This document shows, piece after piece, positions 3,799 through 64,000 of a stretch of DNA of 64,000 nucleotides (positions are counted from its first letter, which is position 1; every line of letters starts with the position of its first letter). The stretch lies in assembly GCA_010015585.1 (NCBI GenBank), contig ML975161.1. One strand, written 5' to 3'. The notes below the pieces were generated by a model that saw only the letters and a list, made by a program, of their open reading frames with translations, was not told the DNA's origin and did no database searches. The DNA comes from Eremomyces bilateralis CBS 781.70 (Eukaryota). The translations under genes were made by a program, and so were the position numbers.

Positions 3799-6795
3799 AT
3801 GGAACCAAATGTTAAGAAAATCGGGGATGGTGTGAGGTAGGTCCTTGTTCAGGATGATTTTTATTCCTTGTTACTCTACTATGCAGGCACGGGTTTTCGA
3901 ATATAATTGTGCTAATCGATATATATGATAATAGGAACTTGAAACATCTCGAAGATGTTATAGTTGTGACCCTCTCAAATGAGACTGCGACTATTCCGGA
4001 TCTTCTCTCACGGCTGTCAGCCTGCCATTCTGCTTGGTCCGATGCTCTTAGTCACAATGTGGACCTTGCCCTTGATGAGGTGTCTCATGCACGACTCTGG
4101 GAAGTGCACTCAAAGGTTAATAAGGGCTTCCGTGGGTGGTTGAAGTCCGTGAGTAGTCGTTCGGCGAAGAACAAAGTCGTAGAACAACGGAAACTATTCA
4201 CGAGCTATGTTGAGTTCATCAAGGAATGTCAGCGCTTCTACCGGAACTATATCCTTTTACTGGATGACGCATGTGGTGGTATTTCCGAGTTGAAGGATGT
4301 GGTGGCTACTTGGAAGCGGCACCGTAAGTATTCGCCTACGTCGCGTTTAAAAGCGCCCAGCGACATCTTTAGACTAACAAGTAGCAGACCACCCTGCGGG
4401 ACCCGCATTGAACATTCCGCTCGAACTACAGCCGCATGCCTTGCGCACTGCACACCTTTCGCTCATCCACCTCGGCGACCTCTCCCGCTATCGTGCTAGC
4501 TCCACGCCTGCAAAAGAGCGCAAGTGGGAACCGGCCGTTGGCTACTACACCCGCGCTTCCTCTCTGATGCCATCCGAAGCCCATGCCCATAATGGTCTCG
4601 CCGCTATCGCTTACGAGGAGCAAGATCACTTCCGCGCAGTCTACCACCTGTTCCGTACATTGACGGTGGAGCATTCGGTGGGGACAGGAAATCTTGAGAA
4701 AGAGTTGAGAAGGATCGAGCTGGCTCATGGCCGCGGGGAATTAATGGCCGGTGGAAAGGGTGATGGCAAAGAAGGAAAGGAAATCAAGGCTCTGCTCGCT
4801 TGGTTCTTGAGGTTGCAGGCGGGCTATTACTCGGCCGAGGAGTTTCCGCAGAGAGAGGCGCTGGAGAGGGAGGTACTCAGCCAGCTTAAGATTCAGGTGA
4901 AGAAAAGGCCGGTGGAGAGCACGCTGTTCAAAGTCGTGGTGATCAATCTGGCGGCGGAACACGTTGCGACCGAGAGGTTGCGAGGTATGTATTCAACTCC
5001 ACAACCTTCGTCTTGTCATAGCATTCCTGACAATAGTGCTCCTAGCCCTGGGTGCGTCAGCGACCGATAATCACCGCCAGTCTGTCTTGCACCTCATCCG
5101 GTTCAACATTTGCACTTTCACACTTCTGCTCGAGCTGCTTCGCGATGAATTGGATCGGGTCAAGGGCGAGGATGTCAAATCAGGAGCTCCCTCCGGCACT
5201 TCAAGGCGCTCACTCGCCGATAGGCTCAGCAGTCTTTCCCGTCGCGTGCTTGCACTCCTCCACCTTTATTCCGCCTGGTTCTCCATGAAATGGTCGATTC
5301 TGCCCCAGCTTCCCGATCCATTTCTGGTTGCGAAGTCCCGCGAATTGTGGGCTGTATACGCAGCGACGCTGACCGCGATTGCGAAGCAGTTTCCTGCACC
5401 GGAATTGCCAGCAGCCGAATATCTGCTGCAGGAGGAGGCGGATTTGGTTGGTTTTGTCCCGTTCGCTGAAAGCTCGAGCAGAATTTGGGAGAAAGATGGA
5501 GTCAAAAAGCCAAGGAAAAGTGACTCAGATAAAGGGCTCGGAGCGGATGGCGAGATGCTTGCTCGACTGCGAGAGATCTTGGTGAGCGGACTGGAGTTGA
5601 TGGTATCGGAGGTGAGTTTCGCACGAAGCACCAATGCTAAAATCGTTTCCACTAACAACAATCACCACAGGGTTCTCCGTTGGAGTTAGATAATGATGGC
5701 CAATTCCTCTATAAATCTGCCGACGGACTGGATAACATGCTCCCTGCGCCGATCCATGAACCAGAGCCACCGAAAACATCGAAGGCTGACGTTACCAACC
5801 CCTCGAGACGAGACACCTCGAAACGAGTAGCACCCTCCGAGTCTGGCTCAGTTGTCACAGTCACCAAGGATGCTTACATGACGCGAATGGTCCACAACCT
5901 TGTTGATGATGAAGACCCAGTCAACCCCCCGCCTACCAATGTGCCCCCTCTGACGAAGCCATTACCGTCAGCTCACCAATCCTTCGAGAACTCCCCTTTC
6001 CAAAGCACAGCACAGTTCGGAGCGCTCCCTGCGAATGCGCCATTCCGGGTCTCCGATCTGGTTGACAGCATTACTTCTCGCAACAGAGCTCCATCTGGCA
6101 CTCAAGCCTACTCATTATCTTTCTCACCAGGTCTCGGCACGACACCACACAATGGCTCTCCTGTCGTCCCGTCCGCTCGACAGCTCGGCGCCTCACCATT
6201 CCAACGCCCCTCCTCCTCCTTCTCCTTCTCCAACGAACGAGCCGCCGAAATCTGGGGCACTCCCGCTGGCATCGGCAGTCCGATTCACAGCCGTGTCCCC
6301 GCCCCGACCGCCACCGGCCGCAGCTCCCTCAGCCTCCACGACTCCTTCGACCAACTCGACCTCTCCCCCTCCCTCCGCGATCTCCCCATTTCCAACTACC
6401 GATCCCCGCCCCGAGGGCGCGCGCAGCCGCACTACGCCCCGGCGCACTCCCGCAACGACTCGCGCGACTCGACCGGCTCGGCGTTGCTGCTCCAGGAAAA
6501 CACTTGGAATTATGCGGTAACGCCGGCGCCGATGCTTGGGACGACGGGGAGTCCGAGGGGGTGGGGAGGGAACGGAGGGTGGGGTGGGCAGATGGGCGGG
6601 AATGAGAACGGACACGTTGGGGAGAACGGACACCCTAGTGGGAGCGGGTGGGGTGGACAGCCCCGGCTGAGCCCGAATACAGGAGCTTATGGACAGGGAC
6701 TTGGCGTCAATGGAAGTGGTGCGTTGGATGGGCAGATGAGTCGGAGTTGGAGTGGACATGGGGCGGTGGGCAGCGGAATGGGACATGGAGGGTGA
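3799..6795 (+). CDS. Est1/Ebs1/SMG7-family DNA/RNA-binding protein (5 exons)
   Basis: Introns 3837-3934, 4324-4384 (or 4387, a tandem TAGCAG acceptor), 4985-5045 and 5612-5670 join ORFs 3909, 4408, 4964 and 5680 in frame. LIHLGDLSRYR, AVGYYTRASSLMPSEAHAHNGLAAIA, RAVYHLFRTL and LQEEADLVGFVPF are characteristic of the Est1/SMG 14-3-3-like domain. The C-terminus is low-complexity. The first exon is less certain. Confidence 0.8.
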
Positions 6796-7361
6796 GGGAG
6801 ATCTCGGATATGGGGGATTTCGATCAACCACCAAATGCCAAAGCGGCAACGCTGCTGCAATCCGCGGCAGTTGCGTGGACCTCCTCACTGCGAGTGATGA
6901 GCTTTCCGTAGGGTCGGCAATTTGCGCTTCCAGCACCCTGTACCCGACGGCACGCCCGTTTGCCGGTTCCAGGTTGCATTTCTGAGATGGAAAGGTGGGA
7001 AGGAGGAGGTCCAGGTTCCAGACGAACCGGTTTGTTGTTGGGCGCTAAATTGTCGACTGCCCGTCACTTAGTTCGAGGGTGCACTTGCTATATTTGCAAG
7101 GTGGACTTCAAATTGCATTCCAAGTGTCCTCTACTTTTCTCGTCAAGGTAGTCAAATACATTATCGTGCAACCCGTCCCTCATGTGGCCGAATATGCACT
7201 GTTCCTTTTCCGTCTTATCACAAGCCGTCTTTGCTGGCACGCAAATGTTGAATGCGTGCCCTGGCTCTAAATCCCCCCGAAAACCCTAGCCTTCTATGGC
7301 TGCATTCCAATATTTTGTTGAACCGCGACCCTTAGAACGCCATAATGATGAAAGTGCAGGC

Positions 7362-8585
<1,224 letters not shown>

Positions 8586-9833: not shown

Positions 9834-10863
9834 ATGAAGTTCATACTGTCTAAATCTGTCATTTTCCATGCCATGGTCATGCTTATCGCTTTCGCGGCCC
9901 TTGGGCTCGCTTTCGTCAACCCCGGGGATGCCATCCATGTTGATCACGATGGTCCAGTCCGACCGGCGTCTCTGGAGATGATGGTGCCTCGACAAGAGAA
10001 CGCAGCGCTTGATAGCAGGTAAGTCCGCATAGTTCTGCAGAGTATTCCGCGATTTTCACTGACAATTGCCCCGGCATGGCGCGCAGCCAGCTATGCGGCG
10101 AACTCTCCCTTGCTCCTAACTGTCCAGCCATCGTCGAAAAGAGACAAGACGACCATGCGGACATGTGGCCGAATGAAGTCGAGACGGTCACTGCCACCTC
10201 AGTCGTATGGACGGTCGAGGCCATCACGAGCACTGTGACCACCCGCGTCTCTGTAAGCAGCGCCCCCAACGGTCTGGTGTCCGACGTTTCGTCCTGGACT
10301 AACAAATCTCCTCTACCTCTATAGCAACCCAACACTTCCCAACCCGCCAGCACCGACAGCAAGACGTCCAGCTCTTCGAGTACAGCACGCTCTCGTAGCA
10401 CTACACTTACTCAAACCTCCACATCGGAACACCTTGGCCACTCCACCGAAACGACCTCCACCCAATCTGCTTCAACCAAATCATCCTCCGCCAAATCGTC
10501 CTCCGTCAAATCGTCCTCTACCCAAGCGCCAACGATGGCTACGTTAACCTACACCACCACCGTCTGGGTCGGTGAGACCACCACCACGGTCCTCGTGACC
10601 CGTTCCGCTACGGCCAACACCACAACGATTCAGTCTGCAAGCCAGTCTGCATCATCGAGCAGCGGACGCGCTACGGTGTCGTATGGGGAGTCGGGAGCAG
10701 GTAAATATTCCACCCTCATTCCACCCTCTCCACTTTGAAGGAGGAGGAGAAACCAAACCAACAGTATACAGGTACTATCAAGCATACCGGGGAGTGCACT
10801 GCGATCTTTGTGCTGGGTGCCGTGGTGGCATTAGCAGTTGGGATCGGGGGATTCTGGTTCTAA
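9834..10863 (+). CDS. Secreted Ser/Thr-rich, probably GPI-anchored cell-surface protein (4 exons)
   Basis: Hydrophobic N-terminal signal (MKFILSKSVIFHAMVMLIAFAALGLA). Introns 10019-10086, 10253-10324 and 10701-10771 link ORFs 9774, 10076 and 10535 in frame. S/T-rich stalk. The last exon encodes GTIKHTGECTAIFVLGAVVALAVGIGGFWF*, a hydrophobic tail following small residues (SGAG). Confidence 0.75.
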
Positions 10864-11480
10864 TATGGACTTGTCTAGCGGACATGGCTCGAAGAGTACA
10901 CGTTTTAGCGGTGCATTGCGCTAGGTGTTCGGAGGCGTATATAAGAGGCGAAACGGGGTTGCTCCGATTACTTCCTTGATAATTCTCACTGGATTAGGGT
11001 AGAGCGGGCTCCTTCCAGTTTCAATTCTCTCGATTTCCACTTACCAAGCTGATTACCACTGTGTTCACCGCTTTTCCTACCTATCGATGTCTATGATCGT
11101 TTCCAGTTAAAGCAGGAGGAAAACTCTATCCATTTTCCAAATAATAACTATCAAGTGTCGAAGATCAGTTCCACTGTCAAATCCTAGGATCGATAATGAC
11201 TCGCGCCTCAGTGATTTTGGTCTCAGTGGCATTGTCAAGACGAGCCGGGACTGTGGCATTGGATGGCACATTTCGAACAGTGGATGGGGGAAGCGGAAGT
11301 TCTTGGCAGTTGACTTGGTGCAAAACTCCGCCTCCTGGAAGCCACGCCCGCTCCCCTTTCTCTTCCCCCCTCTGCACATCACATAACCCCTGGACCTTGG
11401 CTGTTCGAAATGACGGGCGGTGCAGCAACCCATAAGCAGACTCTGCCCGAATCAATGGCTAGATGCAATGCCATGCATAC

Positions 11481-11752: not shown

Positions 11753-13165
11753 CTACGTTGTTAGCAAGATGTATAGTTAGGAGAATAGCCCATTGTTGGA
11801 GCACGCAATCGCTACCACAAAATGGGCCACCAAAGGCTACCACACTTTGCGGCATGGGTCCAGCTTTTTTTCCGCCTACTGGCGATGAATGCGGATCTTG
11901 GACTTCTCGTGCTGTCTGCCTATACGCAGCTCAAGTTTGGCAACAGATGCATGTCGCCTATGTGGCAGTAAGTTCAGTGATATCAGAATGTATTCGCCAA
12001 GATTACCTTGATAACAGTTTATAGGGTGTGGGGGGGCTTTTACTGGACATATCCGAGTTTGTTGCGCTCTCGGCTTGGACAAACCTCGGTCTAAAACGGT
12101 TGCCATCTCAATGTCTTATCATCGCCGAGATATTCGCGACCGCTTTTTTTGTCGTCAGTGTTATCTTTTTGGCGTTGAGCACCCTGTGCCACGAATGCCA
12201 AATTCCTATGCCGATCGATACAAGCGAACCTTATATTTTGGCAATGATTTATTTAACCGTATCGCTTAGGTTAGCTCCTTCACTCCTTGCAGTCCATGTC
12301 CGCTGTGTTCTAAACTGCTGCTGTCCACGGAGACTATCCACGCGAAAAGAAACAACTCTATTGGGTTGCAGAGTGCCCCAACGACCTGAACCCACCAGCG
12401 CGAGCCACGGCACATACGATCCGTTCAAAGAGCCTGGGAAGTGTCCTGAACCTGCGTTGGCAGTACATATAGCGTGGAAAGAAGGTCTTCGACAGCTGGA
12501 CTTATCATTATCGTGCAGACTGGGCCGAAAGTGTTACGGATTGGCTCAATCGTCCCATGCGCCATCGAGGATAGGAGGACGTAGTTGGTATATCGTGGAT
12601 GGAGCGTTGAAAGCGTGAATGGAACCTCTGATTCTGCCGAAGCAATGATGGAACGGAATTAATGGATAATATTTCATAAAGTGACACTCTGGTACTAGTT
12701 AGATTAAGAACTTGGGATCTGATAGTCTGTAAATCTCTAGTTTTCTACCTCAGAGAATTAGCAGTAATAGAACGCATTCAAGGCGAAACTTAACCATGAA
12801 ATACCTTCTAAGCATGAGCGTCTATCGTCAGAAAAGCTATAGTCATTAGGTTGTGGTGTCGTTCAGCTTGATATCGACCATGGAGTACCTTTGCAGGGTT
12901 CAATGCAGTTGGCATTACCATCCTCGGACCGAACCGCTTCCCCGCAAAATCTGTGGGTACGACAGAACAGACATCATGAACACTTGAATAGCCATTCAAA
13001 GATAATAAAGCAGAGGTTGGAAATCGACTTATAAATATGTGACCAAGTAATTTAAAGCAAAGGATCCATTGAACGCTGTAAAACCGCATATAACCAAGCA
13101 ACCCTTCCATCAACCACGAAACTCCCAATCCAGTAGAAAGAGCTCGGAACCATCCCATATCCACC

Positions 13166-15108
13166 ATGACCAACAAGGACGTGCCCCCTCCCCCCTCCAC
13201 CGCAACCTCTCGCCTCTCCCAAATAACCTCCCATATCTCCCCCTCATCATCGTCATCCACCACCCCGCCTCCCACCAAACGCCGCGCCCGCAAAAGCTCC
13301 ACCACCCCCTCTCCTCCCGCCGACTGGTCCGATGTTCTCTCGGAGCTCGCACACGTCCGCACACTCGCCCAAACCCCCCAGGCCGACACCACCGGCTACC
13401 AACGCCATAAGCAAGCCGGCAAACTCTGGGTGCGCGAGCGGATCGAGTTGCTGGTCGACCGCGGCTCGTTCCGCGAGGTGGGCAGCGCGGCGGGGAGCGC
13501 GACATGGCGGAAGAAGTGGAGCGGGGAGGAGGTGACGGAGAAGGGGTTAGGGGTGGTGGAGGGGGAGAAGGAGGTGGTGGATGGGTTTACGGCGAGTAAC
13601 AACGTGCAGGGGTTTGGGAAGGTGGGGGGCAGGAAGGTGTTGTTGACGGCGGATGACTTCACGTTGCGGGCGGGACATGCGGACGGGGCGCTGATGCCGA
13701 AGACGTTGTATATGGAGAAGCTGTGCCTACATTTGAAGCTGCCGATGGTGAAGTTGGTGGATGGGGCGAGCGGGGGCGGGTCAATCACGACGTATCGCCA
13801 GTTTCAGGGGACGTACCTGCCGGACTTGGAGCTGCTGAAGTGGGTGGTGAAGGAGCTGGATCAGGGGATCCCGCAGGTGGCGGCGGTGGTGGGGCCCGCG
13901 GTGGGGCTGGGCGCGGCGCGCGCGGCGGTGTCACATTTCTCGGTCATCGCGGCGGATATCGGGAGCTTGTTCAACGCCGGGCCGAAAATCGTGGAGGGCG
14001 CGACGTTCGAGGAGGATCTGAGCTTCGCGGATCTCGGGGGTCCGGGCATCCATTGCGCGAACGGGGTGATCGACAACGTCGCGCCGGATGAGAAGGGATG
14101 TTATGAGCAGATCGCGCGGTTTCTTTCGTACGTTCCAAACCATGGGGGCGTGCTGCCGCCGGTGATCAAGAACGACGATGCGCCGAATCGACATTGTCCC
14201 GAGCTCCGAACGGCGATTCCGCGTCGGGCGCAACGGATGTACGAGGTGCGGAATATCATCAAGGAGGCTGTTGACCGCGATACGTTCTTCGAAATCGGAC
14301 CACATTGGGGGAAGACAATCGTGGTCGGCCTGGCGCGCATGGCGGGAAGGACGGTGGGGATCTTCGCCAACGATGCGATGAACAATGCGGGGGCGTTGGA
14401 CTCGGCGGGGTCGCAGAAGTATGACAAGCATATCCGGCTCTGCGACTGCATGGGGATTCCGATCGTGCAGTTCATCGACATCCCGGGGTTTGCCATTGGC
14501 ACTGTCGCTGAGAAGGGCGGCGTGATGAAGTGGGGTCTGGAAATGTACAAGACTCTGTTCGGCTCGACCATACCTATCTTCTCGGTGGTCATCCGGAGAT
14601 GCTATGGCATTGGAGGCTCGATCTTGGCAGACTGTAGAGATCCGAACTGTCGAGTTGCTTGGTAAATGCTCTATCCGTGTCAGGTCGACGAATCAGTGCT
14701 AACGTTCCACAAGGCCGAGTGGGAATTGGGGATCTATCCCGCTCGATGGAGGAATTGAAGGTGCGTGTTGAATCTGCATGCAAAATAGACCTACACTAAA
14801 CTTCAACAGTCAACCATCGAGCAGAACTCAAGCGAGCAGGCGACAAGAAACCGGAGGTATATGCACATCTCGAAGCGGAGTACATGAATCTACAAAACCC
14901 GGTCCGGACGGCCAACCGATTCAGCATTGAGGAGATCATCGATCCTGCAGATACAAGATCGGTTGTATGCGCCTGGACGAAGCATATGTAAGTGCAACTC
15001 AGACAAATGGAGGACAGACGCTAATACGACGATAATAGGTACGAGCACAATTTGGTGACGAGGCTAGAGCAGAGGGCTGCGGGATTCATTAAACCATCTT
15101 TTAGATAA
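13166..15108 (+). CDS. Acyl-CoA carboxylase carboxyltransferase (propionyl-/methylcrotonyl-CoA carboxylase beta-like), 4 exons
   Basis: Motifs GKLWVRERIELLVDRGSFREVG, DDFTLRAG, LFNAGPKIV, LGGPGIHCANGVID, IVVGLARMAGRTVGIFAN, FIDIPGFAIG and RRCYGIGG. Introns 14662-14713, 14761-14809 and 14988-15038 extend the frame through AWPSGNWGSIPLDGG...IEEIIDPADTR to TAA at 15106-15108. Confidence 0.9.
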
Positions 15109-15258: not shown

Positions 15259-15350
15259 AGTAGTGATGAGAGCAGTGATAAGAGCAGTGAGAGCAGTGAG
15301 AGTAGTGAGAGCAAGCGAGAGTAGTGAGAGCAAGTGAGAGTAGTGATGAG
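15259..15350 (+). repeat. Degenerate ~9-10-nt tandem repeat (GAGAGYAGT)n
   Basis: Directly visible: agtgatgagagcagtgataagagcagtgagagcagtgagagtagtgagagcaagcgagagtagtgagagcaagtgagagtagtgatgag. Confidence 0.8.
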
Positions 15351-17086: not shown

Positions 17087-20000
17087 ATGGCTGGGGGACG
17101 ACCAGATAACCTCACCAAACCCGCCGCGAAGACCGTCCAGGAGAAGATTCAACAATGGCAGGAGCGCAACGGCGCCGCCGCGGTGCAGGAGGAGGCGGCT
17201 GCCGCCGAACGCAAGTCGCACCGCCGAACGAAGACGGAGAGCTCGGCGACGAACGAATCTTACTCAACGCCCTCGCCCGGTGCGATCGCTCAATTCGCGA
17301 CGGTGGAGACAGAGCGGTCTGGGACTTTGGCGAGGTCTTCAGATGCGAAGAAGACGGCCCCGAAAGATGCGCTGGCGGAATGGGAGGCGTTGAAGACGAC
17401 GTATTCCGGTCGATCTCGCGTCACCGCATCCGTTCCGCCCCCGTCCACGAATCTAGACTACGACGACAAAGCAAGCGCGACGATCCCGAACCTCCCGACT
17501 GCTGTCTCCACCCCGACCAAACGTCCCCGCCGCAAACGTTCAAAAACTGAATCGGACGCGCGGTCGTCCGCCCTGCCAGCGCGCCCTTCGATCATCCCTG
17601 ACCCGCACATCGTCGAGCGATCGCCGCGACACAGCACGGCACGGAAGTCGGGGAAAGGACATACGTTGCGCCCTGATCAGCTGGACGCGGAGATCGCGGC
17701 GGCGACGACGCCGAAGAAACGGGTTATATCGGATGGGCATTGGCGGAAACAGGACGCCTCACCGGCGGTTGAGCTACGCGTACCGAGTCCGGAGAAAACG
17801 CCGGGTTTGGTACGCAAGCAGAAGCCGGTCGAGGAGGAGAAGCCTACTGGTATTCCCGTTATTCCGGGTCTGCTTGACATGTTTGACGTGGGCTGGGAGA
17901 AAGGCGCTTGGATTCGGAGACAGCCACCACAACCCGAACCGGTCGCTAACTCTGCCGATGACAGCGACAACAAAGGCTGGGAAGGAGGATGGACCCGCCC
18001 CGGGCTCATGCATGAAATTGTAGAGAAGCAGCGCCGGCTCGCCGAAACACGAGGGGCGTGGATCCGGTCACAGAACGGCGAGGGAATCCTCCCGGGCGAC
18101 AGCATCCAGATAAAAAAGCAAATGATGATGGAAACGGCGCAGCTGAAGGAGCGGATGAAGCAGGAGGAGAAAGAGCTCGCGCGGTTGGCGGCGGGGATGG
18201 GCGTGCACGTGCCGTACTCCGGCGATCAGCAGCCGCCGGTCCGACTCCCGAGGAAAAAGATGGAGAAGGAGAAGGAGAACATCGCGGAGAAGCTGGATCT
18301 CCATGGTGGCTCCCCCGGCGATCCGAAGATCAATCAGTGGATCTCCGAGCAGGCGGACGTGACGGTTGAGCGTGCGGAACGGCGGAAGAAGCGCGATAGT
18401 GAGCGACAGTCGAGCACCACGGATCCGGATGGCCCGCCTTCTTCGGGACGGCAGAGCTCCAAACCAAAGTATCGAGAACCACGGCGAGGGAGTGGCGATG
18501 GTAAAATCCTCCACGATGAGGTCCAGACCGAGACAGAGATCCCAAATGGTGCGCGGAGTTGGCCTCGGAAAGCTTCCGCTCGACCTGACCCCTTAATGGA
18601 AGATGGGATCCGAGTCTATAGTGCAGATCGCGACGAAGGTAGAAGGAGGAAGACTAGCAGACAGCACAGTGGAAGCCATTCGATACAAGCGGAGGAGTTC
18701 ACAGCGATATCGTCGAGGCGGAAATCAGGCAGACCCGAGCGTGATGCGCGTGCTGAACCACCACCGAATTATACTGTGCCGGCTCTTGCTGGCGTCGCTG
18801 CCGGTGCCATTGGTTCTCGAATCAGCTCATGGCTTCATTCCACGCCCGATCCTTTCACCGATTCACCAAAAAGCAAGCCATCACGCTCTCGTCGTTCAAA
18901 ATCCGGACCCGGCCCATCACAAGCAAGCACGCTTGACGAGGAGACCATCGTCACAGAGACGAGCATATCCGACGATCGCCGGCGACAGCGACGGACCAGC
19001 CAAGATGAGGCGACGGAAGTGACCGCAACGACGTACCTCACTGGCACATCCCAGTCGCGGACGGAAATCACGGAGAGCTCATACCTGACGGATATCACGC
19101 GCGACTCCGCGAGCACCACGCCTCCGAGCTTGAAGCGGTCCGGCGCGAGGCATTCACGCGAGCGACCGAAATCCGTCGTTGCATCGGAGTCGCCGTCCCA
19201 AGACTCGAGATCATCGGTCGATCCGACCACCCTCGACCTCTCCGAGCCGTCAAGGGGACGGCCGCATTCGTTTGGATTCGGTCCGTTCAAGCGACTCTTC
19301 CCAAGCACGGGCAAGCGGCTCTCGACGATCGTGTCCGAAGATACAAAGGCGAGGGAAGATCCGGACTCGGATTCGGAGGCGCCGAATGAAGTCGAGATGC
19401 CGGCTCCGAAGGTGAAATCCATTGCGGAAACCACGATCGATGATGCGGCTTCCGGTCCGCCGAAGCAGCTGCAACTCGTTCCTACACTTCCAACAATACC
19501 AGAACCGGAACCAAGTACAGTATCGAGCCAATTCACTGCCAACTCATCCACGCGCTCCCGCCACTCGACGAAATCAAGGCCCAAGTCAACGTCGTTGAAA
19601 CGTCGCCTCACCACCACCACCGACCTCATGTCCGTCCTCTCCCTCCCCGAACAGCCCACCACCACCCCCCAAAACGCCCCCCAGCCCCTCTCCATTCCAT
19701 CCACCACCCTCCCAAAAAAGTCCTCTTCCATCATCTCTGCCCGCTCCCTCCGCTCCACTACCACCACCCTCACTCTCCCCTCCCTCCTCGCCACCCTCCG
19801 CACCGACGAACTCAAATACCTCCGCGAACTCCGCACCCTCGTCGACGGCGTTATCCCCGTCCTCCTGCAATGCGTCCTCTCCAAATCCGACACCGCCCTC
19901 GCCGCCGGCCTGTTTGCCCGCACCACCGCCACCGATGCGTCCAATGTCGACGTCACCAAGCCCATCGTCGACATGGGTGTCGCGCTCGAGCGGCTAAAGA

Positions 20001-50122: not shown

Positions 50123-52424
50123 ATATGGATACGATGATCGGAAGATGGAAATGATTATGAGGGTTCGTCAATCGTTTTGCTCGTGCAGTACAATACCGTA
50201 TCCAATTGTTTCCTTTGTAACGAGGGACGACGTATGGTTGATCACGCTTGTAATGGGGATACGTACATAGTCCGTCCGGGTGGAAGACCGATTCCCCTCT
50301 AGCCTAAGCTGGATGGTTGGTATTCGATCTCCGCACCGGATGGTACTTATTCTGAGGTGTCTGAAAGTGGATAGACTCAGATAGCAATGCAGATGCAGAT
50401 GCAAAATCCACGACTTCACGCATGCACCCTTAAGATCCATTATTCCATTATTTCCCATCCGAGTTTTAGAAGAGATGTGTGCGTCGTTTTAGTTAGGTCC
50501 ACTCACTCGCGTGATCGACACCAGTACCCGTATCTTCACCCTAACGAACCTCACCCATCCCACTAGAGATTCCAGCATCCCATCCACATGATATCCTAGC
50601 ACCATCGTGATCCTCCCACGCAGTCTCTCCTCGTCCCACCCAACTCCAATCCAAGCCTCTCCTATCCAGCAATCCACTCCCAAAATCCCCAACCGCCAGC
50701 AAAATACGATTACTCCCGCTGATCGTCTCCCCTGGAATTCGGATCATCTGCTCTCCGATGGCTCTCGATCTAGGAAGACATGTCACCGCTTGACGATGAT
50801 GGCGATGGCAGAAGAAATAAGGGTAGATGGCGATGACTCTGGTTCCTGTTGTTGTCGTCGAAACATAGGTGGCGTGGATGTATACCTGGGGAGGTCGGTC
50901 TGAAACTTATATGCGTCTGCGTTGTGGTGGATGACAGTAAGAAACCAAACCACGTCCTAAAGAGGGCTGTTGGCAGAAGATCCTGGGAACTACTTAGGTA
51001 CATTTGGTCCTGGCCATATGGAGCGCTGTGGAATGCTATCGAGACCTAATTGTAGCGCCATCAGAACATCTCGGCGGTGTTGCTGAGGGTAGGTTAGAGG
51101 TGTTTCAGGGGTTGAAGGAAGGGGGCAGAACGATCTGGGGAGGATACATCGTGTGACTGTTTGTCTGACCTTCGTTAGACAGCTAGAACAGCTTCCAATG
51201 GATTAAGAAGATCGGTCGAAAGTAAGGGTGCATTAAAGAGCTTAGAATTTACAGGTAACTATGGACAGTTCTAGATATACAGTAGCAAGATATCTACCAG
51301 GAATGCCTTCAGGCATATCCGCACAATATACGAGCAGGTACATGCAGTCATACAGTTCAAAAGAGCCCTTCTTCTCATCTAGGCTCCATCATACCAGCAA
51401 CTATACCATTTTCGAACATCGAACATCGAACCTCGCAAAATGTCGACCCATGAAAACTCTCGTCCAGCAAAACGAGAAACCTCCCGCCCGCTCCTTTCCC
51501 TCTCCCACCGTACCCTCCCCTCCAACTACGATGTGATATGGTATCCAATCATCTCCCATCCGCAGCCCCAGCCAACCGCCGCCTCTATCCCTCAGTCCAT
51601 TTCCTCCATCCCTGATGAACGGTAGGAAAGGGAACTGCGCCGGCAGACCTAGGTGGGGTGGGGAACTGATTCGTGGACGAGTGTTTGAGATAGGGGAGGA
51701 GGTTAAGGGATGAGGAGGGGGGATGATATGAGGGGATGGGATGACTGGTTGCTGGGGGTGTTGATGGAGAAGAAGCGGGGGGGAGTATCGTAGGGTTGAG
51801 ATGATGGTGTTTGAAGCGGACGGGGCGAGGCGAAGTTGTGCTGTGCGTGGTGGGTTTGGATGGTTGTCGATGGGGATTTACGAGGACGTACGAGAAGGAA
51901 GAATGGCGTCGATGTTCCGTTCACTCTGGTGCGGTAGATTGGTATAACGCAGGTTGGCGTTGGGTGAAGGGCGTAAGAGCGCAGTGTCATCGCCGTCAAC
52001 ACGGGATGGGGATGGCGTTTCTTCGAACCTCACATCACGATAGACACATGAATCAGATCAACAATGGAGACACCCATTAAAATAACGAGAATTCTATTTC
52101 CTAAGAAAAGTCTCTTCTATTCCGGATCTATCCACCCGAACGCACCCATCATGCATTCTCTCTCGAATCCATCTCCCTCATCGCATACGAAGCGAAGCGA
52201 GCAAACAAGACGCAAGATGATGGTAGGGAAGGCTACTCATCAAAAAACCCGGAAAACGAAAAGGAAAAACGAAGAAAATAACCCAAAGTTCATTTTTCGT
52301 GGGCGAGCCATCAATCAATGTATGCGTCAAGGGAGAACTTTTTGCGCCAGTTGGGGTTGGGGTGTCGAGGGGTTTATGGGGATCCAAATCGACTTTTTGG
52401 GGGCGACATAGATGGAGGGGAGGT

Positions 52425-55400
52425 TTACTCCTCGTCGCTGAAGACTTCTGTGGGGAGATAGTCAGTATGATAGTCATGAATTGTCAACGGAAAGGGAACA
52501 CACCTTCACCAGCCTTCCTTCGCTTCATGCGATCCTTCTTCGCCTTCCGCGCCTCGTTGCTCGTCAACTTCTTCTTCTTCTTGCTGCTCTCGATCTTGTT
52601 CCCCATCGCATCGAACTTCTCCTCCTCGTCGTCATCCTTCTTGTCCAGACGCGGACCGGCCCCCTGCCCCGTCACCCAGTTGTGACCCGACGGCGTCATC
52701 GTGCCCGCCTGCACGGCCCACACCTCCTCGGTGATCTCCTTAGTGAACTCGCTGTTATGCGTGATCACGATGACACCACCTTCGAAGGTGCGCAGCGCCT
52801 TGGACAGCGCGCCGAGGGAGTCACGGTCGAGGTAATTGGTCGGTTCGTCAAGGACGAGGAGATGGGGTCGCTGCCATGAGCACGCGGAGAGCACGGCACG
52901 CACGCGCTGGCCGCCCGAGAGGCCGACCATGCGGGAATGGGAGACGAGCTCGGCGTCGAGGCCGAAGTTGGCGCAGTGGGCCTCGATCTCCTTGCGGATG
53001 AGCGGGCGGAATTGGCCGGAGGCGAGGGCCTCCTTCTGATCGACCTCGGCGACGAGCTTGGCATGGGACTGGATGATTTCGGAGCGGGGGATCCACTCGT
53101 TGTCGGCAGTCATCATGGGGGTCCACTTCTCGTTCTTCATGCCGACGTTGTCGCCGAGGCTGAAGGAGCACTCATACTCGTAGCTGTTCTTGAACTTGCG
53201 GCGGGAGTGCACGCCAAGGATACGGCGCTGGGAGTCGTTGATAATGTAGATGCGGTCCATGGCCTTCTCGTCCTCCTCCGTGATGATCTTGTTGGCACGG
53301 TCCATGGTCTCGCGGTCCTCGCCGGTCTGGAAGCGCCACTGGATGTACTCGGAGGGGGTCTTGTCGAGATGGTGGTCGATGTGCGCGAACGCGTGCTGCT
53401 TGATGTACGCGATACGGATGTTCTCGTGGTGGTACACCTCGCCGGTGGTGGGGAGGAGCTCACCGGTCAGGACGTTGACGAGGGTGGATTTACCGGCGCC
53501 GTTGGGACCGATGACCGCGATACGGGAGCCGAGCGAGCATTGGAAGGAGATATTGGTGAGCTGCGGCGCCGGGGTGCCGGGGTATTGGAACGTCATGTTG
53601 CTGACACGGACGATGGCCTTGGCCTTGGTCTTGACACCCTCGAGGAAACCGGGCTCGGGGAACTTGAACTCCATCTCGCTAGCACCGAGCTCGTAGTAGG
53701 ATCGCGCGGACGGGACCTTCTTGACGAAGTCGGAGAGCTTGCCACGGTAACGCTTCAGCTTGAAGCGCTCGTAGTGGATGACATGCTGGATGACGTTGTC
53801 GAGGAAACGGCTGTCGTGAGAAATGACAATCGATGTGCACTTGCTGTTCTTCAGGTAGTCCTCGAGCCATGCCACGTTCTTGACGTCCATGTGATTGGTC
53901 GGTTCGTCAAGGAGCAGGATATCGGGCTGCTGGAAGACAGCACGGCACAGCGCCAACTTCATCTTCCATCCACCGGACAGAGCGCCAATGTAGCCGTTCA
54001 TCATGTCATCGTTGAAACCGAACTCCTTCAACTGATCGCGGACCTTCTCCCGGGTAATATCAACCTTGGCCTCGTTCAGCTTCATGACCGTCCAGTCGAT
54101 GACCGGCATCTCCGTGTCCGCCGAATCCAAGTCGTGCTCGATGTACACGGTCTTGACCTCGTCCTGCTTGGGGAAGCCATCCAGCTGCTCGTTGTTGATG
54201 GCGCGCATCAGCGTCGTCTTACCCGAGCCGTTGGGGCCCAGCAGACCGTATCGCTCGCCACGCTTCAGACGCAGATGCGTCTGGTTGAGCAGGATCTTGG
54301 CACCGTACGCCAAGCTGAACGTGCAGTTGCAGAGATCCTCGCCCTCCTCTTCGTCCGAGGGGACCTCGTCCGCGTCAGCAGCACCGGGTGATGCCCGCTT
54401 GCGGAGCGTTTCGGCGACGCTCTTGGCATTGTCGTCGCCGATCATGGCGGTGATGAAGGGAATGGAGTTGGCGCTCCATGAGTGCGAGTCTGTGTCCTTC
54501 TCGTCGACGAGCTGGCCACCGATGGCGGCGATGTACTCGATCATGGGGGCCCACTTGGCGGCGGTGGTCTCCTTGTGGCTAGCGGAGAGGATGTCCTTGA
54601 GGATGGCGGAGATGGTGGAGATGTCACCGGACTTGGAGATCTCAGGGATCTTGCCATCCTTGACGTCACCGACACGGACGATGGTGTCGAGACCCTGCTT
54701 GGTCTTTTCACGGGCCTCGGGGTCGGCGAGGGTGCCGTAGTTCTTCTCGAGCGCGGGCATCAGCTTTGGCAGGAAGGCCGCGACGATCTGCGGATCTTCG
54801 ACAAGCTTGCACATATTGTCGATGATAACGGCGGTTTTACGCTTGATGGCAGTCTCCCGCTCGACAAGACCACGCTCGAGAAGCGGGACCATGATGGCCA
54901 AGGTCGGCTCCCGAACCTCGGTGACGAAGGTGGTGGCACCGAGCAAGTGAACGGTCTCGGGGACGTTCTCTGGCTTGGCGATACACTTGATGAGCTCGGG
55001 AATGAAGCGGTCGATATCCTTGTTGACGATCAAGGCGCAGACTTTCTCCATGGTGCCGTAGGCCGCCTTCTTGACTTCGGGCTTGGTGTCCCACATGGCC
55101 TCGGAGATGACGGGGATGAGGTCAGGAACGCGATAGGCGGTCTGCGCCGCGGCATTTTTGCAGAGGAGCTCGATGCACTGCAGATCGGTCATCTTCTCCG
55201 GCCACTTTTGTGCGGTGCGGAGTGAGTGCAGAATGGGGGGGAGGACGGCCTTGACGGCGTTGGCGTTGGAAGCCTCGACGATGGCGAGGGCCGCGGCTTG
55301 AGCGGCGTTCTTGACCGGAACGATCTTATCGCCGATGGCAGCGAGGACTTGTGGGAGGATGTTGACGAGGTACGGCTCGACAGCGGCCGAGACGGTGGAG

Positions 55401-56180: not shown

Positions 56181-59100
56181 GATTTGGTGGTGGGAGGGAC
56201 TTGGGCGGGCTAACCAGGGGTCATCCAACCAGATTGGAGATTATTCACCTCCAGCGCTACTCAAGTCGGTGACCAAGCCTTGTTGGTGGTTGTTGGGCAG
56301 TTGGGGGTGTTGGTGCCCGTGGATGTGGGAGTCCCTGCTTGCTTATCGATAGACGGTAATCCAGCGATATGCGGTGAATTGAATGGGAATTTTAGGAGTT
56401 GGTGTCTCGAAGTCAAGGCGTAATTATGGGAGTTCATGTTGATTGTATATTGCAATCAGGCATGTCCTCCTCCGCCGAGATCCACCAAGTTATTATAAGA
56501 ACATCAAGCACCGTGGTACATATATCTGACCCTATTACTGAATGAATGGACGAGATACGATCCAAGAAACGAAATAGAGCTGTGACTTCCTTGTGAGGCG
56601 GTGACAATTCTGCCAGCTTTCTCGCCTTCCACAATCGGAGATGCCTATCATCTCAGCCAATCACCGTCCACGCTTTGGTAAAGTTTGGGTTTGATCTATT
56701 TTTGCCTCCGCAGCCTCATCGCCTTAGGCATTTCATGCAGTGATTTTTCATGTCCTTCTGTCTATTATCGTGATTCATTGGTCGTCTTACAGGTTGCAAC
56801 GAAGTGCAGAGCGTGCCAGAATTCACCAACAGCAGGACGCAAGTGTTGGAGAGCCCAACCCAATGTGATAGGGATTATTGTTGCCTCATATGCCTTGTTG
56901 CCTCAGCCCCTTCCCCTTGGCCCCTTCACATTTCATGTTGATGTCTCTAATAAGGTCATCCCACATAAACTAACTAAGTTAAACCTTATTAACTAATCTA
57001 GTTAATACAAAACAAAGAAAATGGCCCTTCTCTCAAGTCCTCCCCCCATAGCTCAATTTCCAGATCCATCAATCCATGGGAAAGAGATGTCCAGCCACAT
57101 GCCAGCTTCCCCATCTTCCTGCCAACCCCAATGGTCGACCATCCAGAGTCCAGACCTGGTCCATCTGTCGCAGACTAACAAACCACCAACCTACAGTCGC
57201 CTCGCTCCGAGGTTCCGTATCGTAAAGATTGCCTCGATCCGTGACTTATCTCCTTGACGCAACGAAAGTATCGGTGGAAACTTCTCACCCTCCAAAGACC
57301 AGCAAATTAGTTGGAAAGTCAGCCCCTTCCCCTGCATTGCTTCTCTGGTTCGGCTCATCAACGCCACCCACCCCAGATTTGGCTGCCTCTGATCCACTCT
57401 ACATTGAAGTCCCTTAACCATCGAAATTCGAGACCTTGGATTTGCCCTTAACCTCCAACCGCAGTTGAACGTCTCGAACCCTACTCTCGGGCCCCGAACC
57501 CCGAATGCAGATGCCGCCCCCACGATTCAGCCGCTCCCCGAAAGCGCTAATAATATCGTACCGTGGTTCGGTGACTTACTCGCCCAGCTCGGATCGCCCG
57601 ATGTAGCCGGTCAAACCGGATCCTGCGCGTTGCACACGTGGACATCACACCTCGAACACCGCCAGATGGATTGGAGGGCCACGACAGGATGCCGGGGGGG
57701 GCGGTTGAGGGGTTGACGGTCATCAAACTTGGTGCTAGGCTTGGGACTGGGTAGGTATGGCTCGGGGAATCTCGGGGATGATTACTTGATACGGAGTCGT
57801 ATGGTAGCTCGAATTGCAGGTCTCGATATGAGCAAACGACTTGGTAGGAATATCCCATTGTCTCCGTGCTAGGGAAGGAGAAACACCTCGAGAGGGTTGG
57901 AAACGACCGGTACAGACCTTATTTCCCTATTATGTACTCTGCACTGCAGTTCGGATTTTCCAAGGTCGTCACTCGTCAGCCACAATCATACCCACGTCTT
58001 CACAACACTCCACGGTCAGCTCTACTGCCAGACCTACTCAGGGAAATATCCAATCTCGCCCTATCCCCACTCTCACAAACGTAACCCCTGGTTATATAGA
58101 GGCACAGTGTGTGAATAGTCCTTAGCCCGGAAATTGGCACAACGTACACTGCGACTATACCACACAGTGGAAGAGGGGGCGTGGAAATACTGCAATGAGT
58201 CTCCAGCGATGGGCATGTCTTTCTACAACATTCAGGGGCCGGTCGAAGCCATGTCACAGACAGAGAAGCTGTCCCTAATACCCTCAACTCCCAAACGACG
58301 GCCAAGGTAAGGGACGCGATACGGGATGCTCGTCGCTCATCAGGATAGAGCTCCAAAGACCACCATACTTCCGACTTATCCCACGACATCGGTCTTGGGG
58401 TTCTCGAAGGAAATAGCAAGAATTGGTAGGATGGGACGTAGAGAAAAGAGTTGGCGACCCGATCTTTCCTTAATCACTTGCGCGACTTCATCCACGGACT
58501 GGACTAAACTGGACGGGACCTCGCCCGCCCAGCGTCTCGCGATCATATCCTGAGCATCACCTTCAACATCCGGAGATCTACCCTCCTCAATTAATTGAAT
58601 CATCCAGTTCGCAATCCGATCATCGTCCACCCCGGGGTGTCTAATCTCTCGCATCCGCCCAAACATCCCCTCCCCCACCTTCCATACGGTGTCGACGACC
58701 TGACCATCCCATCCATCGGGAGTGCAGATGTTCGATAGGGGATGTATACAACTTCTAGTCCGATATTCGACCTGAAATCCACCGACACTAGGATTCTAAG
58801 GAACAAACGGGTCGGATGCCAGATACGCACATTGCTTCCAACCTCCGCCGCCCATCCCTTACACGCTTTCCCCAGACATCCGTCCCATCATGCCGTACAG
58901 ATACCGCCACGCCACCGATGCGCTCCGAGTTCCCGGCCGGCAGCCCCATCTCGACGACCGTAACCTTCGTTCCCGGTTCTTAGCCGACCGGTTCGGCAGC
59001 AGCGTCCTATTGGTCCAAGATCCTGCATGATGGCTGTTGAAGAACGCTACCTGTTCGAGACGCCAGCGCCGTCCGTTCCTGACCGCTGATGTACCAATGG

Positions 59101-60324
59101 CGATTTAGGGCGGATGGGTTTGATGTAGGGGCGAGTCTTTCGTTTCGGATAGGCCTGCCTGGGATGTTTCGCAAAGGTGGGGATAGGATGTTCCTAGCAT
59201 CTCTCGTGTGTCTCGACTAGGTATAGGCTCGATGCGATAGGTATTCCAACCGAATCCCTTCTATAGACAAAAGACGTCGACAACCCCCTCCCCCGCCCCT
59301 GGATTTCCCGAAACTTCTGCAGACAGGATTCTTGACATCGGTATTCGATAAACACTCTTCATGTTCCTACTCTCCGCATCGCGCTTGTATCGATCCGAGT
59401 GGTTGGTGTCGTGGTCTGTGGCCCTGGATGTGGTGGAGTAGCGGGGCTGAAGGAAACCTACCTATCTACGTGAGGTGAGATCCGAGTGATTCGATGGCGG
59501 CGGTTGGGAGGATAAGAGTAGATTCGGATGACTTGCTTCGCATTGGATGACTGGATGGCTGAAGGGTATTGTCGCTGGGTGTATTCGGTCGAGATCTGGT
59601 GAGTTGAATGGGTTAGGGGGTAGATGTTTATCATTCAAGGTTCTTATTACTTCCATGGATAAACCAGACGCATATAGTTGTCCATGCAATGTTTTCTGTT
59701 ATTGGTCTGCCCTTCTTCGTACTAATCCCATTAATTCCTCTTGATTAATGGCCCAAGTCGATTAGTAGAGGGCTACATATTGTGCCTTGACGTCAGTAGC
59801 CGTGAACTTAGATAGCATGTCCATCCTCTCTGCATCAATGTGTCCAGTTGCTAACTTGGATAAAAGAGACTCAAACATATAAATACTCCCATATCACTCA
59901 CATCACAACATCAAACTAATATTCAATTTTGCACCTGAATATCCCAAACCGAAGCCACCCTTGATCAAACAGATAAATAAGCAAACAAACAAACCATCCA
60001 CTCCATATTGGTATCATGTGTCCCTCCTTATGCCAGTCCAAAACTCCAATATAAACCCAAGCTCGTACAAAAGTAGACAATCCCATGATATCGTACATCC
60101 CATATCTCCTCAGGTCATAAAAAGTGTGATGAAGAGTCAAACAGAGCTACTTTTGGCGCCAGTGTGTGCCTGCATGCCGCCTTAGTGCGACATGGATCGA
60201 GTTCGGTCGCCGTTTTCTTCAAGTAAAGCATCGTAGACGTCGAGACGGTCAGTCGGGAGTGGCTTTTGATCCGATCCACGGGGGTCGTGTCGAGACCAAA
60301 CGGTGTGCCGCTGCAGTGTGGAAT

Positions 60325-62035
60325 TTAGGCCTCGTTGGCATCGGTCTTCTCCTCGACCTCCGCCACCGTCTCCGGGCCATCTACCCCATCTTCCCGCTCT
60401 TCATTATTCTCCATCACATCCTCCATCACAGCCTCCTCCCCATCCAGCTCCCCCATCTTCTTCCCAATCTCCCTTCCCATCTTCTTCAACCGCTCCACCT
60501 CGTTCTCCGCCGCCCGCACTCTCGCCTGCGCCTTCTCCAAAGCCTTCACCATCCTATCCATCGCATCCGCCGACTCCTCCTGCTCCGTCAACCTCTCCCG
60601 CAACCCCACCTCGTTCGCCTCCAGTTGCTCGATCCGGCTGCCAAACAACCCGTTGATCACCTCCAGCTCATTCACTCGGATGCGCAAGGTAGTGTTTGAT
60701 GCCGATAGGTATTCGTACGAGGGGTAGGTATCCCCAGGGGTTGCGGCCGCGCCGTCGCCGGGCGATCGAGGGCGGGGATGGTCACTGGCGGGGAAGGCAT
60801 GGTTGTTCAGGGTGGCGGCGTCGAAGAGGTGTTGGGGTGCGATGTGGGCGGATGGGTGGTGGAGGCCCGGGGTGGTAGTGCGGGAGATAGGCGAGCCGGA
60901 GCGGTCGGAGAAGGCAGAGGGGAATTTGCGCACATCGGGCCGCGTGTCGGTGCGGGGGGTGGAGTGGGTGGATGAGGGTGCGGGACCGTTTGGGTCGCTA
61001 AGCTGGAGGTCACGGTTAGGGTTGGATCTGGATATCGCGTGGTTGGGGATGATGGGATGGGATGGACGAACCTTTCGCTTCTGGCCGGTTGGCTTAACGC
61101 GATTCCGGCTTTTGATTACATCCGTCTTCAGATTCAGGGGACGCGACTTTCCGTGCAGCTTGAGATATAATCCGCAAGCGTTGCAGAGAAACGCTCCCTG
61201 GTCATCCCGTCGCCAGAGAGGAGACACTTTGGTCTGGCAATTCGAGCAAATGGGCTGGTTGCGAAACAGTCAGTTCGGCTCAGGCATTAGAAATTTGACG
61301 ATCGTCTCCCTATCGATAAGGGATCGCGGGAAGGCGCGTCGCGTCGACGGCATGACGCATTGGAAGGGAACAGAGAACGTACCGGCTCTGTGCTCATACC
61401 GCCCACCGCCGTTGCAGCCGGGGATGTCGCAAAGCTCATCTTTGCTTGAATATTGAATGGCCTGAAGATAAGGAAAGGGAGTTAGAATGTTGAATTATTT
61501 TGGGAAGGGAGATAAGACGATGCCAAGACTCGAGCTGATGGGCAAGGTCTCGATCAGATAACTCATGGTGATAGTTAATAATTAATCATGAACATCTGTC
61601 TTCTCCTGGCAGGGATGATGACGATCAACAACCATTGCATTGTTAAATGGACAATTCCCTGACAACTTTTGAGGCCCGCCAATCCAAATTCGGAGACGAG
61701 GTGGATAATTGATGGTTCTGAGTGGCGATGATCACTTACCGATTTAAGTGTGGATAAGCCAATGGTGAAGCTGATGTTCCGGCGAGTGAGGCGATGGCTG
61801 AGAGACTTGGAAGGCGCTGGGTTGATTCGAATTTCCGATTTGTTGACGATGTGGATGACGTTGAAAGGATTGGATCCTTTATAGGAGAAAAATTACCAAA
61901 AATAATGGCTGGCAGTGGTGGGAGATATCCACGCGCTGGACTCGGTCGAAAATTGCTACATGCTGTTGGTGAATTGGATCTGTGAATGACCTCTCCCCCC
62001 CTTTGCATCGACGGAATTGTAAGTGTCGACACCAT
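60325..62035 (-). CDS. areB: AreB/ASD-4-type GATA zinc-finger factor with C-terminal leucine zipper (4 exons)
   Basis: Exons 62035-61740, 61461-61383, 61254-61072 and 61002-60325 read MVSTLTIP...[12 protein letters not shown]...[83 protein letters not shown]. Zipper [23 protein letters not shown]. Confidence 0.85.
61466..61574. promoter_or_regulatory. Cluster of four HGATAR sites within areB intron 1 (candidate internal promoter)
   Basis: AGATAA at 61466-61471, 61510-61515 and 61556-61561, and TGATAG at 61569-61574. They lie just upstream of exon 2, which has its own in-frame ATG (MSFATSP). Confidence 0.5.
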
Positions 62036-64000
62036 TGCGAAGGTTCCTTCAAAAGACACAGTCGATGTGTCCCTGGATTTCTGGTCTGATTAAGAATTAT
62101 AAAGTTATTGTTTCTTTCGTTCTGAATTTCGTTCTGAATATCGTCGGAATGTCGACTATCAATGACAATTCTAGAGAATGCTCGGTAGAATATTAGATAA
62201 TGCACTGCGAAAAGAGCAAGGCCAAAACGATGCCCCTAAAGAACGGCTGGGTTTGGACACCCTTCAATTAGATAGAGATGAAGAAAAATAAAAAGATATA
62301 AATGTCTACACTAATTCTCTGCCTTTAATGAGGGCACAAGGACTCTTAATGAAGGCCCGGTTCCATTTCTCAGGGGGGACGATGCCAGGGATGATACCAC
62401 CACTGTGCCTATGCGTCCACTAATAGTTTTGCCGAATATGATAATAGTCAAAGGCTACGAGTATCTTTAAGACTCTGCATGGAGCGCATATAGGTAGTGT
62501 TGAGGGTTCAATTCCCCTATCCAATGTCGCACAGGATGAGGCTCCAGACTCGACAACGTCCTCTCATCGACCCTGTCCGACGACCACCATCCTCACCAAT
62601 TTGAGAAATGCAAAGTTCGTGTGACATTCATACGGAAACGGGGAATCCCCAAGTCCTGCCGCCGGAAGTAATCAAGTCAACGCGGCTACGTTCCTCACTT
62701 CTCCCTTTTCTACCACCGTTCACTAACTAGGAAACAAATGCCCTCAGCCCAAGGATCCGCCTCATCGACATCTCGACACGCTAACCCGGCGAGAGCCTAT
62801 CTCGTTTTCGATAGTCGATACGAGGTCGGTGGCGCCTAGGGGGCATTTCTATCATCTCTCCCGCCCTAAGTCGCGAATCGTCCCCGCAAAACCCAATCGG
62901 ATCTGCGTCCTATCTTCCGTATTTTCGAGCCGTTGTGTCTGGCGATCGCGGTCAGACGGAACCCCCGGCCGCCTTGTCCAGCTTGTGTCGCGTGGGGTCC
63001 GCAGAAGCTGGATGAGACGCGTCGGGAGGCGGTGGGACGCGATTGGCTGGCTGGATGATTTGAGAATGCGGGTTGCACGGCGGTGGTTTGGAAATGGCGC
63101 GGGACTGCTGATGGGTTCGAGGTTTGGAAAAGGGGTGAAGTTAGGGGAGCGGTTAAGCTTTTAGTAGTGGCGGCTGGCGACCTGCATGCTTGAATGTCTG
63201 ACTAGTCGATGTCGATGACTTTCGACTTTCGAGGCACTGGGGGTTACCACTTATGGCTACACACTCACAATAAGCAACATTGAACCGTGAGGATTGTGTC
63301 CGGGCTTCGAGAGGAGCTATATACGTGTATTCTCGTTTCTGCTACCAATAACAGTAGCATCGCGTGTACATGCCTTATCCTTTTCATTTAGAGATATATT
63401 GAATTCTACGTCTGCTAGAAGTACATCTCTAAATCACCATATGCAAGGTTCCTGCAGCAACCTATTTATTCATATCGCTCCCTGGGCATCATTTGTTTGT
63501 CTTGGATACGTTCGGTTTGTCACATCTCGTAGTTCAGTCGCCAAGTGGTTCTCACAAATCTGTTCCATCTCTCGTTTGTGCTTCCTCTTTAGCTCTTCAT
63601 GTGAGTACCATAAGCCGCTCGTACGGCGCTTGAATACCCAGGATCGCAAAGCGCTGACACGGTAGCAGACGATTTTACACATTCTCCAAGCGCGATGAGG
63701 GAATAGAAAACCGCCAACAGCTTGACAGATTTCCAGCCCGGGGAAATCTATCAACCGTCGGAACACGACCGAACGGTTTGCACTTCACAGCCGCCCCATC
63801 ACTAGATCTCTTCCGCATAAGACGGCACCTTAGGTCCAATACCAGAGCGATGACAGTATTAATTGCCAGTATTCCTCCATATGGAAGCATATCCGCAAGC
63901 TCTTCGACCGCATGATTCCTACACCTGCACGTTGATCAATGTACCGCGAGGTGATGAAATCGATGAGCAGGCGACTTTGACGCACTCCTCCAGCGTACAT

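Follow-up and report, generated by a model that had tools for sequence, protein, structure and literature searches.

In most fungi, with Dothideomycetes among the species listed, genes are C-biased at their 5′ ends and G-biased at their 3′ ends (McLean and Tirosh, 2011; PMC3315797). This skew extends to untranslated regions (UTRs) and promoters and alters amino-acid use, with the AT skew being flat, and it was described as a genome average with a flat middle (PMC3315797). It is reported to be of similar size at degenerate and non-degenerate positions. It has no settled cause, although mutational pressure was proposed (PMC3315797). Strand skew around a fixed point is also the rule at replication origins of bacteria, mitochondria and viruses (PMC3315797).

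Here, we analyzed the strand composition of a 64-kb stretch of gene-dense DNA from the fungus Eremomyces bilateralis CBS 781.70 (contig ML975161.1), which is called the window in the following and from which all numbers on this genome were taken. A preliminary description, made from the letters alone, had pointed out sites at which a stretch dominated by C and A is directly followed by one dominated by G and T, and had suggested a bidirectional process starting at fixed points, such as recombination hotspots or replication origins. These C-to-G switches are real, strong and no artefact, and the blocks that they form are tied to exon structure. The explanation favored here, to which we would assign a probability of roughly 45%, is that a strand-specific bias in substitutions, tied to transcription units and their exons, has left the blocks as its footprint over time, and that they are not motif-bearing selected signals.

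Polarity and substitution spectrum of the C-to-G switches

Boundaries were called with a symmetric three-state hidden Markov model (HMM), and G-C steps were scored by a statistic with 250-bp arms. All eleven centers named in the preliminary description were matched by C-to-G boundaries of the HMM at a distance of at most 50 bp (6494, 7836, 13423, 19972 with a second step at 20329, 22868, 25579, 50773, 51615, 59389, 60678, and 62976), and the HMM revealed further blocks missed at first reading (4659, 5334, 10659, 27166, 47707, 52784, and 57664). The z-score of the G-C step reached a maximum of 11.3 for upward and values down to -7.7 for downward steps. Base and triplet shuffles yielded 0-1 switches, compared to 13 observed. 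When blocks of 250-400 bp were kept and only their order was shuffled, a mean of 8-9 up-switches (maximum 12-15) was obtained, so that the raw count of 13 is by itself weak evidence on order. The evidence on order is the polarity seen by the HMM, with 65 expected transitions from C to G vs. 28 from G to C, next to 50 from neutral to C and 51 from G to neutral. C and G blocks were in direct contact in 33 out of 35 C-to-G cases, but only in 12 out of 34 G-to-C cases. The repeating unit is a neutral stretch, a C arm, a G arm and again a neutral stretch.

The C-left/G-right order, previously described as invariable, is not the only one, as reverse flips are present. With both arms above threshold, the ratio of up to down flips was 13/10 at a skew of 0.25, 7/4 at 0.3 and 3/0 at 0.4. 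G-left/C-right flips, raised beforehand as a possible counter-indication if they were equally common and sharp, are weaker and absent at 0.4; they also have a lower GC content and are often located at introns and gene ends. In agreement with the preliminary description, the centers do not share a motif, since the best 6-mer occurred in six of the 17 strong centers at a null mean of 5.6.

At the fourfold-degenerate sites of seven coding blocks, four on plus-strand and three on minus-strand genes, the A/C/G/T counts were 32/337/39/29 in the left and 53/56/394/26 in the right arms, so that C makes up 77% of the left-arm sites and G 74% of the right-arm sites. The C:G contrast has a p-value of 7e-122, its size being partly selected because the arms were drawn by eye from the total composition. 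A loss of the skew at fourfold sites, likewise named beforehand as a counter-indication, was not found; on the contrary, the skew is strongest there, with values up to 0.8-1.0, and mostly lower at first and second codon positions. Fourfold GC climbs locally to 0.9-1.0 inside one exon. Twofold sites showed C:T 142:18 and A:G 45:32 on the left, and G:A 193:20 and T:C 81:77 on the right. Of the earlier wording, "C and A" against "G and T", the part on C and G holds, whereas A:T does not flip at fourfold sites (32:29 on the left, 53:26 on the right, p=0.085) and A and T take a share at twofold sites only. Left and right arms are near mirror images in all site classes, and several blocks fade away from their center. 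Outside genes the arms are milder; at 51615, C 41%/G 12% is followed by C 11%/G 46%, and A and T stay much the same.

When strand-specific deamination and GC bias were combined in a model fitted to the twofold sites, this predicted 46-49% G and 20-23% T on the G-rich strand at fourfold sites, where 76% G and 6% T were observed, and the model was rejected; transversions towards G are therefore required. A strict rule by which everything becomes G is one description among others; A and T fall little outside genes, and the same counts can alternatively be fitted by a strand-specific term raising C and lowering G together with a general GC term. Since both descriptions fit the same counts, the spectrum cannot separate the two leading mechanisms discussed below, namely the transcription-anchored and the break-repair ones, and it is compatible with both. 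Fourfold C showed no strong effect of neighboring bases, CpG context included (0.65-0.83 across 3′ neighbors), and thus no sign of methylation or repeat-induced point mutation as driver.

Blocks, exons and genes in the window and in other fungi

On the coding strand, G is favored and C disfavored over the ~300-500 bp that precede a donor site or stop codon, with the mirror image just upstream. The exon end was more G-rich than the exon start at fourfold sites in 21 out of 23 exons of at least 150 bp, and the skew resets at nine of the eleven introns flanked by two such exons. Eleven of 35 downward steps were no more than 50 bp away from an exon edge (3.9 expected), a sharpness which owes partly to G-poor introns. 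Exons, which make up 44.5% of the window, contain 12 of the 17 strong centers (p=0.03), and for eight of these twelve, 260-490 bp remain to the end of the exon (3.2 expected, p=0.001, with the range picked after seeing the data). Introns are RNA-confirmed at 44-64 kb, while those before 44 kb are predictions made by eye, with some edges being a few bases off.

As stated previously, blocks are found in plus-strand genes, in minus-strand genes and outside annotated exons, with C on the left and G on the right regardless of gene strand. The independence from transcription that had been derived from this symmetry does not follow, however, because C-left/G-right results on the plus strand for genes of either orientation whenever the C bias of the coding strand comes first and its G bias last. 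Such a gene bias looks alike on both strands, and symmetry can therefore not separate it from a bidirectional process. The individual blocks are the following:

4377..5618, plus strand: Est1-like gene, two weaker blocks, one per internal exon, with centers 4659 and 5334; resets at introns 4324-4382, 4985-5033 and 5612-5670 (predicted by eye)
5740..6826, plus strand: last exon of the Est1-like gene, center 6494, 302 bp before the stop codon
7440..8729, minus strand: adenosine kinase-like (PfkB) gene, center 7836 to ~8050, two close mini-switches
10065..10953, plus strand: Ser/Thr-rich putative gene of uncertain model and without Pfam match, center 10659-10738
13095..14549, plus strand: start of the carboxyltransferase gene, center 13423, 256 bp after the ATG
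19437..21158, plus strand: DH-like gene, block in mid-exon (exon of 6.3 kb) across the DH and PH domains, with steps at 19972 and 20329
22311..23371, plus strand: 3′ block of the DH-like gene, center 22868, 489 bp before the donor site
25289..25683, plus strand: block over a possible 82-codon Ser/Thr/Gly-rich open reading frame (ORF; 25383-25631), center 25579
26820..27735, minus strand: ATG27-like gene, center 27166
47421..48126, minus strand: exon 1 of the ribosomal S9-like gene, weaker block, center 47707
50501..51151, between the 3′ ends of the EF1-gamma and EF3 genes: center 50773, no codon periodicity, covered by the RNA contig 50429-51142
51420..52016, strongest block outside annotated exons (z 10.8): center 51615, no codon periodicity
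52496..53937, minus strand: 3′ block of the EF3 gene, center 52784, 279 bp before the RNA-confirmed donor site
57028..57815, between EF3 and areB: center 57664, no codon periodicity
59247..59623, downstream of areB: center 59389, no codon periodicity
60335..61093, minus strand: last exon of the areB-like GATA factor gene plus the preceding intron, center 60678, the block filling the exon
62544..63190, upstream of areB in the spliced RNA contig 62356-63600: center 62976, periodicity not significant (p 0.1)

In the right arm of the adenosine kinase-like gene, all 30 fourfold sites are G, and the G arm crosses a short intron and reaches the gene start. In the mid-exon block of the DH-like gene, the fourfold C:G ratio changes from 73:2 to 11:72. 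The balanced cores at 7810-8090 of the former and 19940-20385 of the latter gene each consist of two mini-switches ~200-350 bp apart, a distance which could reflect nucleosome spacing. Flanks take part in the skew in the case of the carboxyltransferase gene (C 37%, G 10% in its 5′ flank) and, weakly, at the 3′ flank of the Est1-like gene, where G amounts to 32% against 26%. Downstream of the carboxyltransferase gene, a purine-rich tandem repeat with a unit of ~9 bases is located at 15260-15355. A short intron and terminal exon at 23357-23473 of the DH-like gene encode a C-terminus that is conserved in orthologues; the public model P0001 bypasses them and splices to 23600, so that the end of this model looks wrong. 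The 82-codon ORF carries three to four copies of a 9-bp repeat and had no match in the Atlas, a result that is uninformative either way. Seven small ORFs at or near blocks, this one included, were absent from the protein collection in an exact look-up, which misses spliced models.

The gene labels given in the preliminary description agree with the Pfam matches (EST1, PfkB, Carboxyl_trans, DH_2/PH_23/PH_24, and GATA plus Asd-4), and Pfam added MIF-like, ATG27, NACHT/ankyrin-like, phosphodiesterase, ribosomal S9, EF1-gamma and EF3 genes. The DH-like protein matches a public Eremomyces bilateralis model at 99% over 2070 residues; its nearest further relatives among those listed are proteins of Dothideomycetes with ~48% identity. 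Pieces of NACHT-like (NPHP3_N) and ankyrin sequence in several frames are located at 28549-32400 on the plus strand and possibly represent an NLR-like gene. This region is nearly free of skew, as is most of 28-47 kb.

The region 44001-64000 is covered by one DNA contig with zero differences, which may be the source of the present sequence. A second run (X3) contained spliced joints of ten distinct introns in this region and is called RNA here on account of these joints, the run not being on record as RNA. Its contigs partly cover every bin of 44-64 kb; they carry neither strand nor expression level, and expression cannot be ranked by contig depth. A 4.4-kb piece at 56555-61002 spans most of the interval between EF3 and areB and is joined across the last areB intron, which suggests either that transcripts overlap or that a 3′ UTR is long here. 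At 62356-63669, upstream of the areB-like gene and in the opposite orientation, there is a spliced RNA whose intron has GT..AG borders on the plus strand; the two ORFs tested therein had no Pfam match. In runs X1 and X4, joints with replaced letters at 52864-53463 and 52864-53883 were read as other ABC-domain genes aligning to EF3 and not as a rearrangement.

For comparison with other fungi, a search with an alignment of 31 DH-like proteins yielded 74 loci, which were reduced to 42 distinct groups, with 25 groups having enough sites for the mid-gene and 37 for the 3′ test. The 3′ block had the same direction in 33 out of 37 groups, 12 of them significant at 0.01; the groups are related, so that these counts are not independent, and the 3′ window may contain some intron read-through. 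The window's replacements at positions conserved among orthologues follow the skew: the ratio favoring C is 17:5 in the C arms, and that favoring G is 19:10 in the G arms (odds ratio 6.5, p=0.004). In the flanks of these loci, C-to-G transitions exceeded G-to-C transitions in 22 out of 26 loci of at least 13 kb. Among the strong flips listed, 23 were upward and 31 downward, and 17 of the 23 upward vs. six of the 31 downward flips were located inside long reading frames. In the 41 loci of at least 4 kb, 46 upward and 50 downward flips were counted at a skew of 0.25.

Possible origins of the blocks

A substitution bias anchored to transcription units is ranked first because the gradient occurs in nearly every exon and resets at donor sites, the 3′ block is widely common and reverse flips lie between genes. 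The strand ending up G-rich would be exposed as single-stranded DNA in the wake of an RNA polymerase that slows down. The G arm would then arise from sense transcription close to the exon end, and the mirror arm from antisense or convergent transcription. Uracil and abasic lesions on the exposed strand might be copied with deoxycytidine (dC) inserted opposite, by a Rev1-type bypass, which would turn C, T and A into G and leave G unchanged; codon selection may add a general GC preference at silent sites. In yeast, Rev1 is reported to insert dC opposite abasic sites in single-stranded DNA (PMC5605239; review, PMC4608483). The bias observed here reaches silent sites, introns, UTR-like DNA and conserved amino acids.

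Several observations weigh against this explanation. Five of the 17 strong centers (50773, 51615, 57664, 59389, and 62976) have no annotated exon, and codon periodicity was absent at four of them and non-significant at the fifth. The mid-exon block of the DH-like gene lies deep inside its exon, at distances of 2.9 kb to the exon start and 3.4 kb to the exon end, and despite conserved domains it was significant in only one out of 25 orthologue groups. In the carboxyltransferase gene, the G arm peaks beside the center and weakens on the way to the end of the exon. The local skew was no different between 16 orthologue groups with and 25 without a certain intron, and there was no step at its site (p=0.34, in weakly skewed lineages and thus at low power). 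Moreover, the touching C and G arms suit one process spreading from a center better than two end effects, and a model of gene-end bias leaves both the mirror-image arms and the amino-acid drift at conserved positions unexplained.

One process spreading from a center would be at work if DNA broke repeatedly at the C-to-G centers (meiotic hotspots), with repair extending 300-600 bp both ways and favoring G on the new strand, an origin that ranks second and that we consider rather unlikely. The repair could involve error-prone synthesis or an uneven correction of heteroduplex mismatches, in which G mismatches are corrected to the donor whereas C-C and others escape. The latter version builds on work in yeast. 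Gene structure would place the breaks, introns would shorten the tracts and averaging over such sites would yield the gene-wide skew already published. Arms that mirror each other in all site classes, touch at the center and in several cases fade outwards are what this process would leave, and the local rise of fourfold GC within one exon, the near restriction of the DH-like mid-exon block to this lineage, the replacements tracking the skew and the blocks outside annotated exons fit as well. Of 2578 hotspots in the Dothideomycete Zymoseptoria tritici, 1435 are exonic, but GC-biased conversion was reported to be weak or absent in Zymoseptoria (PMC5844332). Strand-asymmetric mutation is documented around human recombination events (PMC11922761); there, however, it consists of C-to-N changes ascribed to single-stranded intermediates, and loss of C from resected tails would, by our inference, result in the opposite polarity. 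In Schizosaccharomyces pombe, C-C mismatches are reported to be repaired by a separate route (PMC4154643). A gradient in nearly every exon is dense for hotspots, and among the sharp flips listed for other fungi, intergenic G-to-C ones are no rarer than C-to-G ones. No polymorphism was seen in the runs aligned to 44001-64000.

Break repair is retained as a candidate on account of the mirrored spectrum, of the blocks in non-coding DNA and in mid-exon, and of the drift in protein sequence. Its far-reaching form, by which the gene-wide skew of fungi is a mere average of discrete, long-lived break-repair sites whose mirror C/G footprints alter conserved amino acids, appears unlikely. If break repair was indeed the cause, recombination hotspots of filamentous ascomycetes would be readable from one genome sequence, and the polarity would show which mismatches or insertions win in repair.

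Selection on RNA composition is improbable. In this case, a C-rich stretch followed by a G-rich one would let an exon or UTR fold back, thereby freeing splice sites and start codons, and such folding would also capture G-rich nascent RNA before R-loops form. The anchoring to exons with resets at donor sites, the arms touching and fading outwards, the presence of RNA contigs in all bins of 44-64 kb and the nearly level A and T outside genes are in line with this idea. Folding, on the other hand, reached z-scores of only -1.8 to +0.9 in 11 blocks relative to arm-preserving shuffles (30 each), with none below -2, and collinear inverted repeats across the arms were not found in 12 regions, although short local pairs exist (e.g., 25551-25605). 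Amino-acid drift at conserved sites would further demand unusually strong selection. Searches for Rfam and transfer RNA matches were negative.

Replication origins at the centers, as suggested in the preliminary description, with damage to the lagging template making the leading strand G-rich, are very improbable. The C-left/G-right polarity is as expected of an origin and known from bacterial and yeast work, but fungal origins are spaced tens of kb apart and have AT-rich centers and long skew ramps. The window, by comparison, contains 17 strong centers, some less than 1 kb apart, which are GC-rich (0.51-0.67) and mostly exonic, and arms of a few hundred bases, most below 600 bp, that end at introns; origins are therefore a poor fit.

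Amino-acid composition, decayed inverted repeats and an assembly artefact can practically be dismissed. Some arms do encode Pro/Ser/Thr-rich or Gly-rich stretches, but the bias persists at fourfold sites with the above contrast and outside annotated exons, the mid-gene switch is missing in 24 out of 25 orthologue groups with the same protein and conserved domains, so that protein sequence is not its cause, collinear inverted repeats are lacking, and both the DNA contig of 44001-64000 (possibly the source itself) and the spliced RNA contigs match the sequence.

Comparison with known systems

The asymmetry at human recombination sites (PMC11922761) shares with the blocks a mirror strand asymmetry about a point, a local gain in GC and a drive over protein constraint. 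It differs in being a matter of C-to-N changes. The skew at replication origins has the C-left/G-right polarity in common with the blocks, which are however of much finer scale and higher density and bounded by exon edges.

The closest match is the gene-wide skew of McLean and Tirosh (2011). A literature search found no paper on a block-like or exon-resetting form of it, with most subscription journals outside the coverage of the search. In contrast to one gradient with a flat middle, the window shows blocks, resets at introns and, well inside a 6.3-kb exon, one complete block. The blocks are also far stronger at fourfold sites than at first and second codon positions, different from what the 2011 paper reports, and they coincide with GC peaks and occur outside annotated genes, too. 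For such fungi this means that analyses of codon usage, of GC content at third codon positions (GC3) and of protein phylogeny are distorted by position within the exon. At the same time, the near-saturated blocks provide exact coordinates to compare with maps of transcription, R-loops and breaks.

Shared with the skew of 2011 are the change of the coding strand from C bias at the start to G bias at the end, as seen in the exons of the window and at the DH-like 3′ end in other fungi, the reach into UTR and promoter flanks (5′ of the carboxyltransferase gene and, weakly, 3′ of the Est1-like gene), the altered choice of amino acids and the absence of a flip in A:T. The pattern in E. bilateralis is thus an extreme and patchy variant of the fungal strand bias described in 2011.

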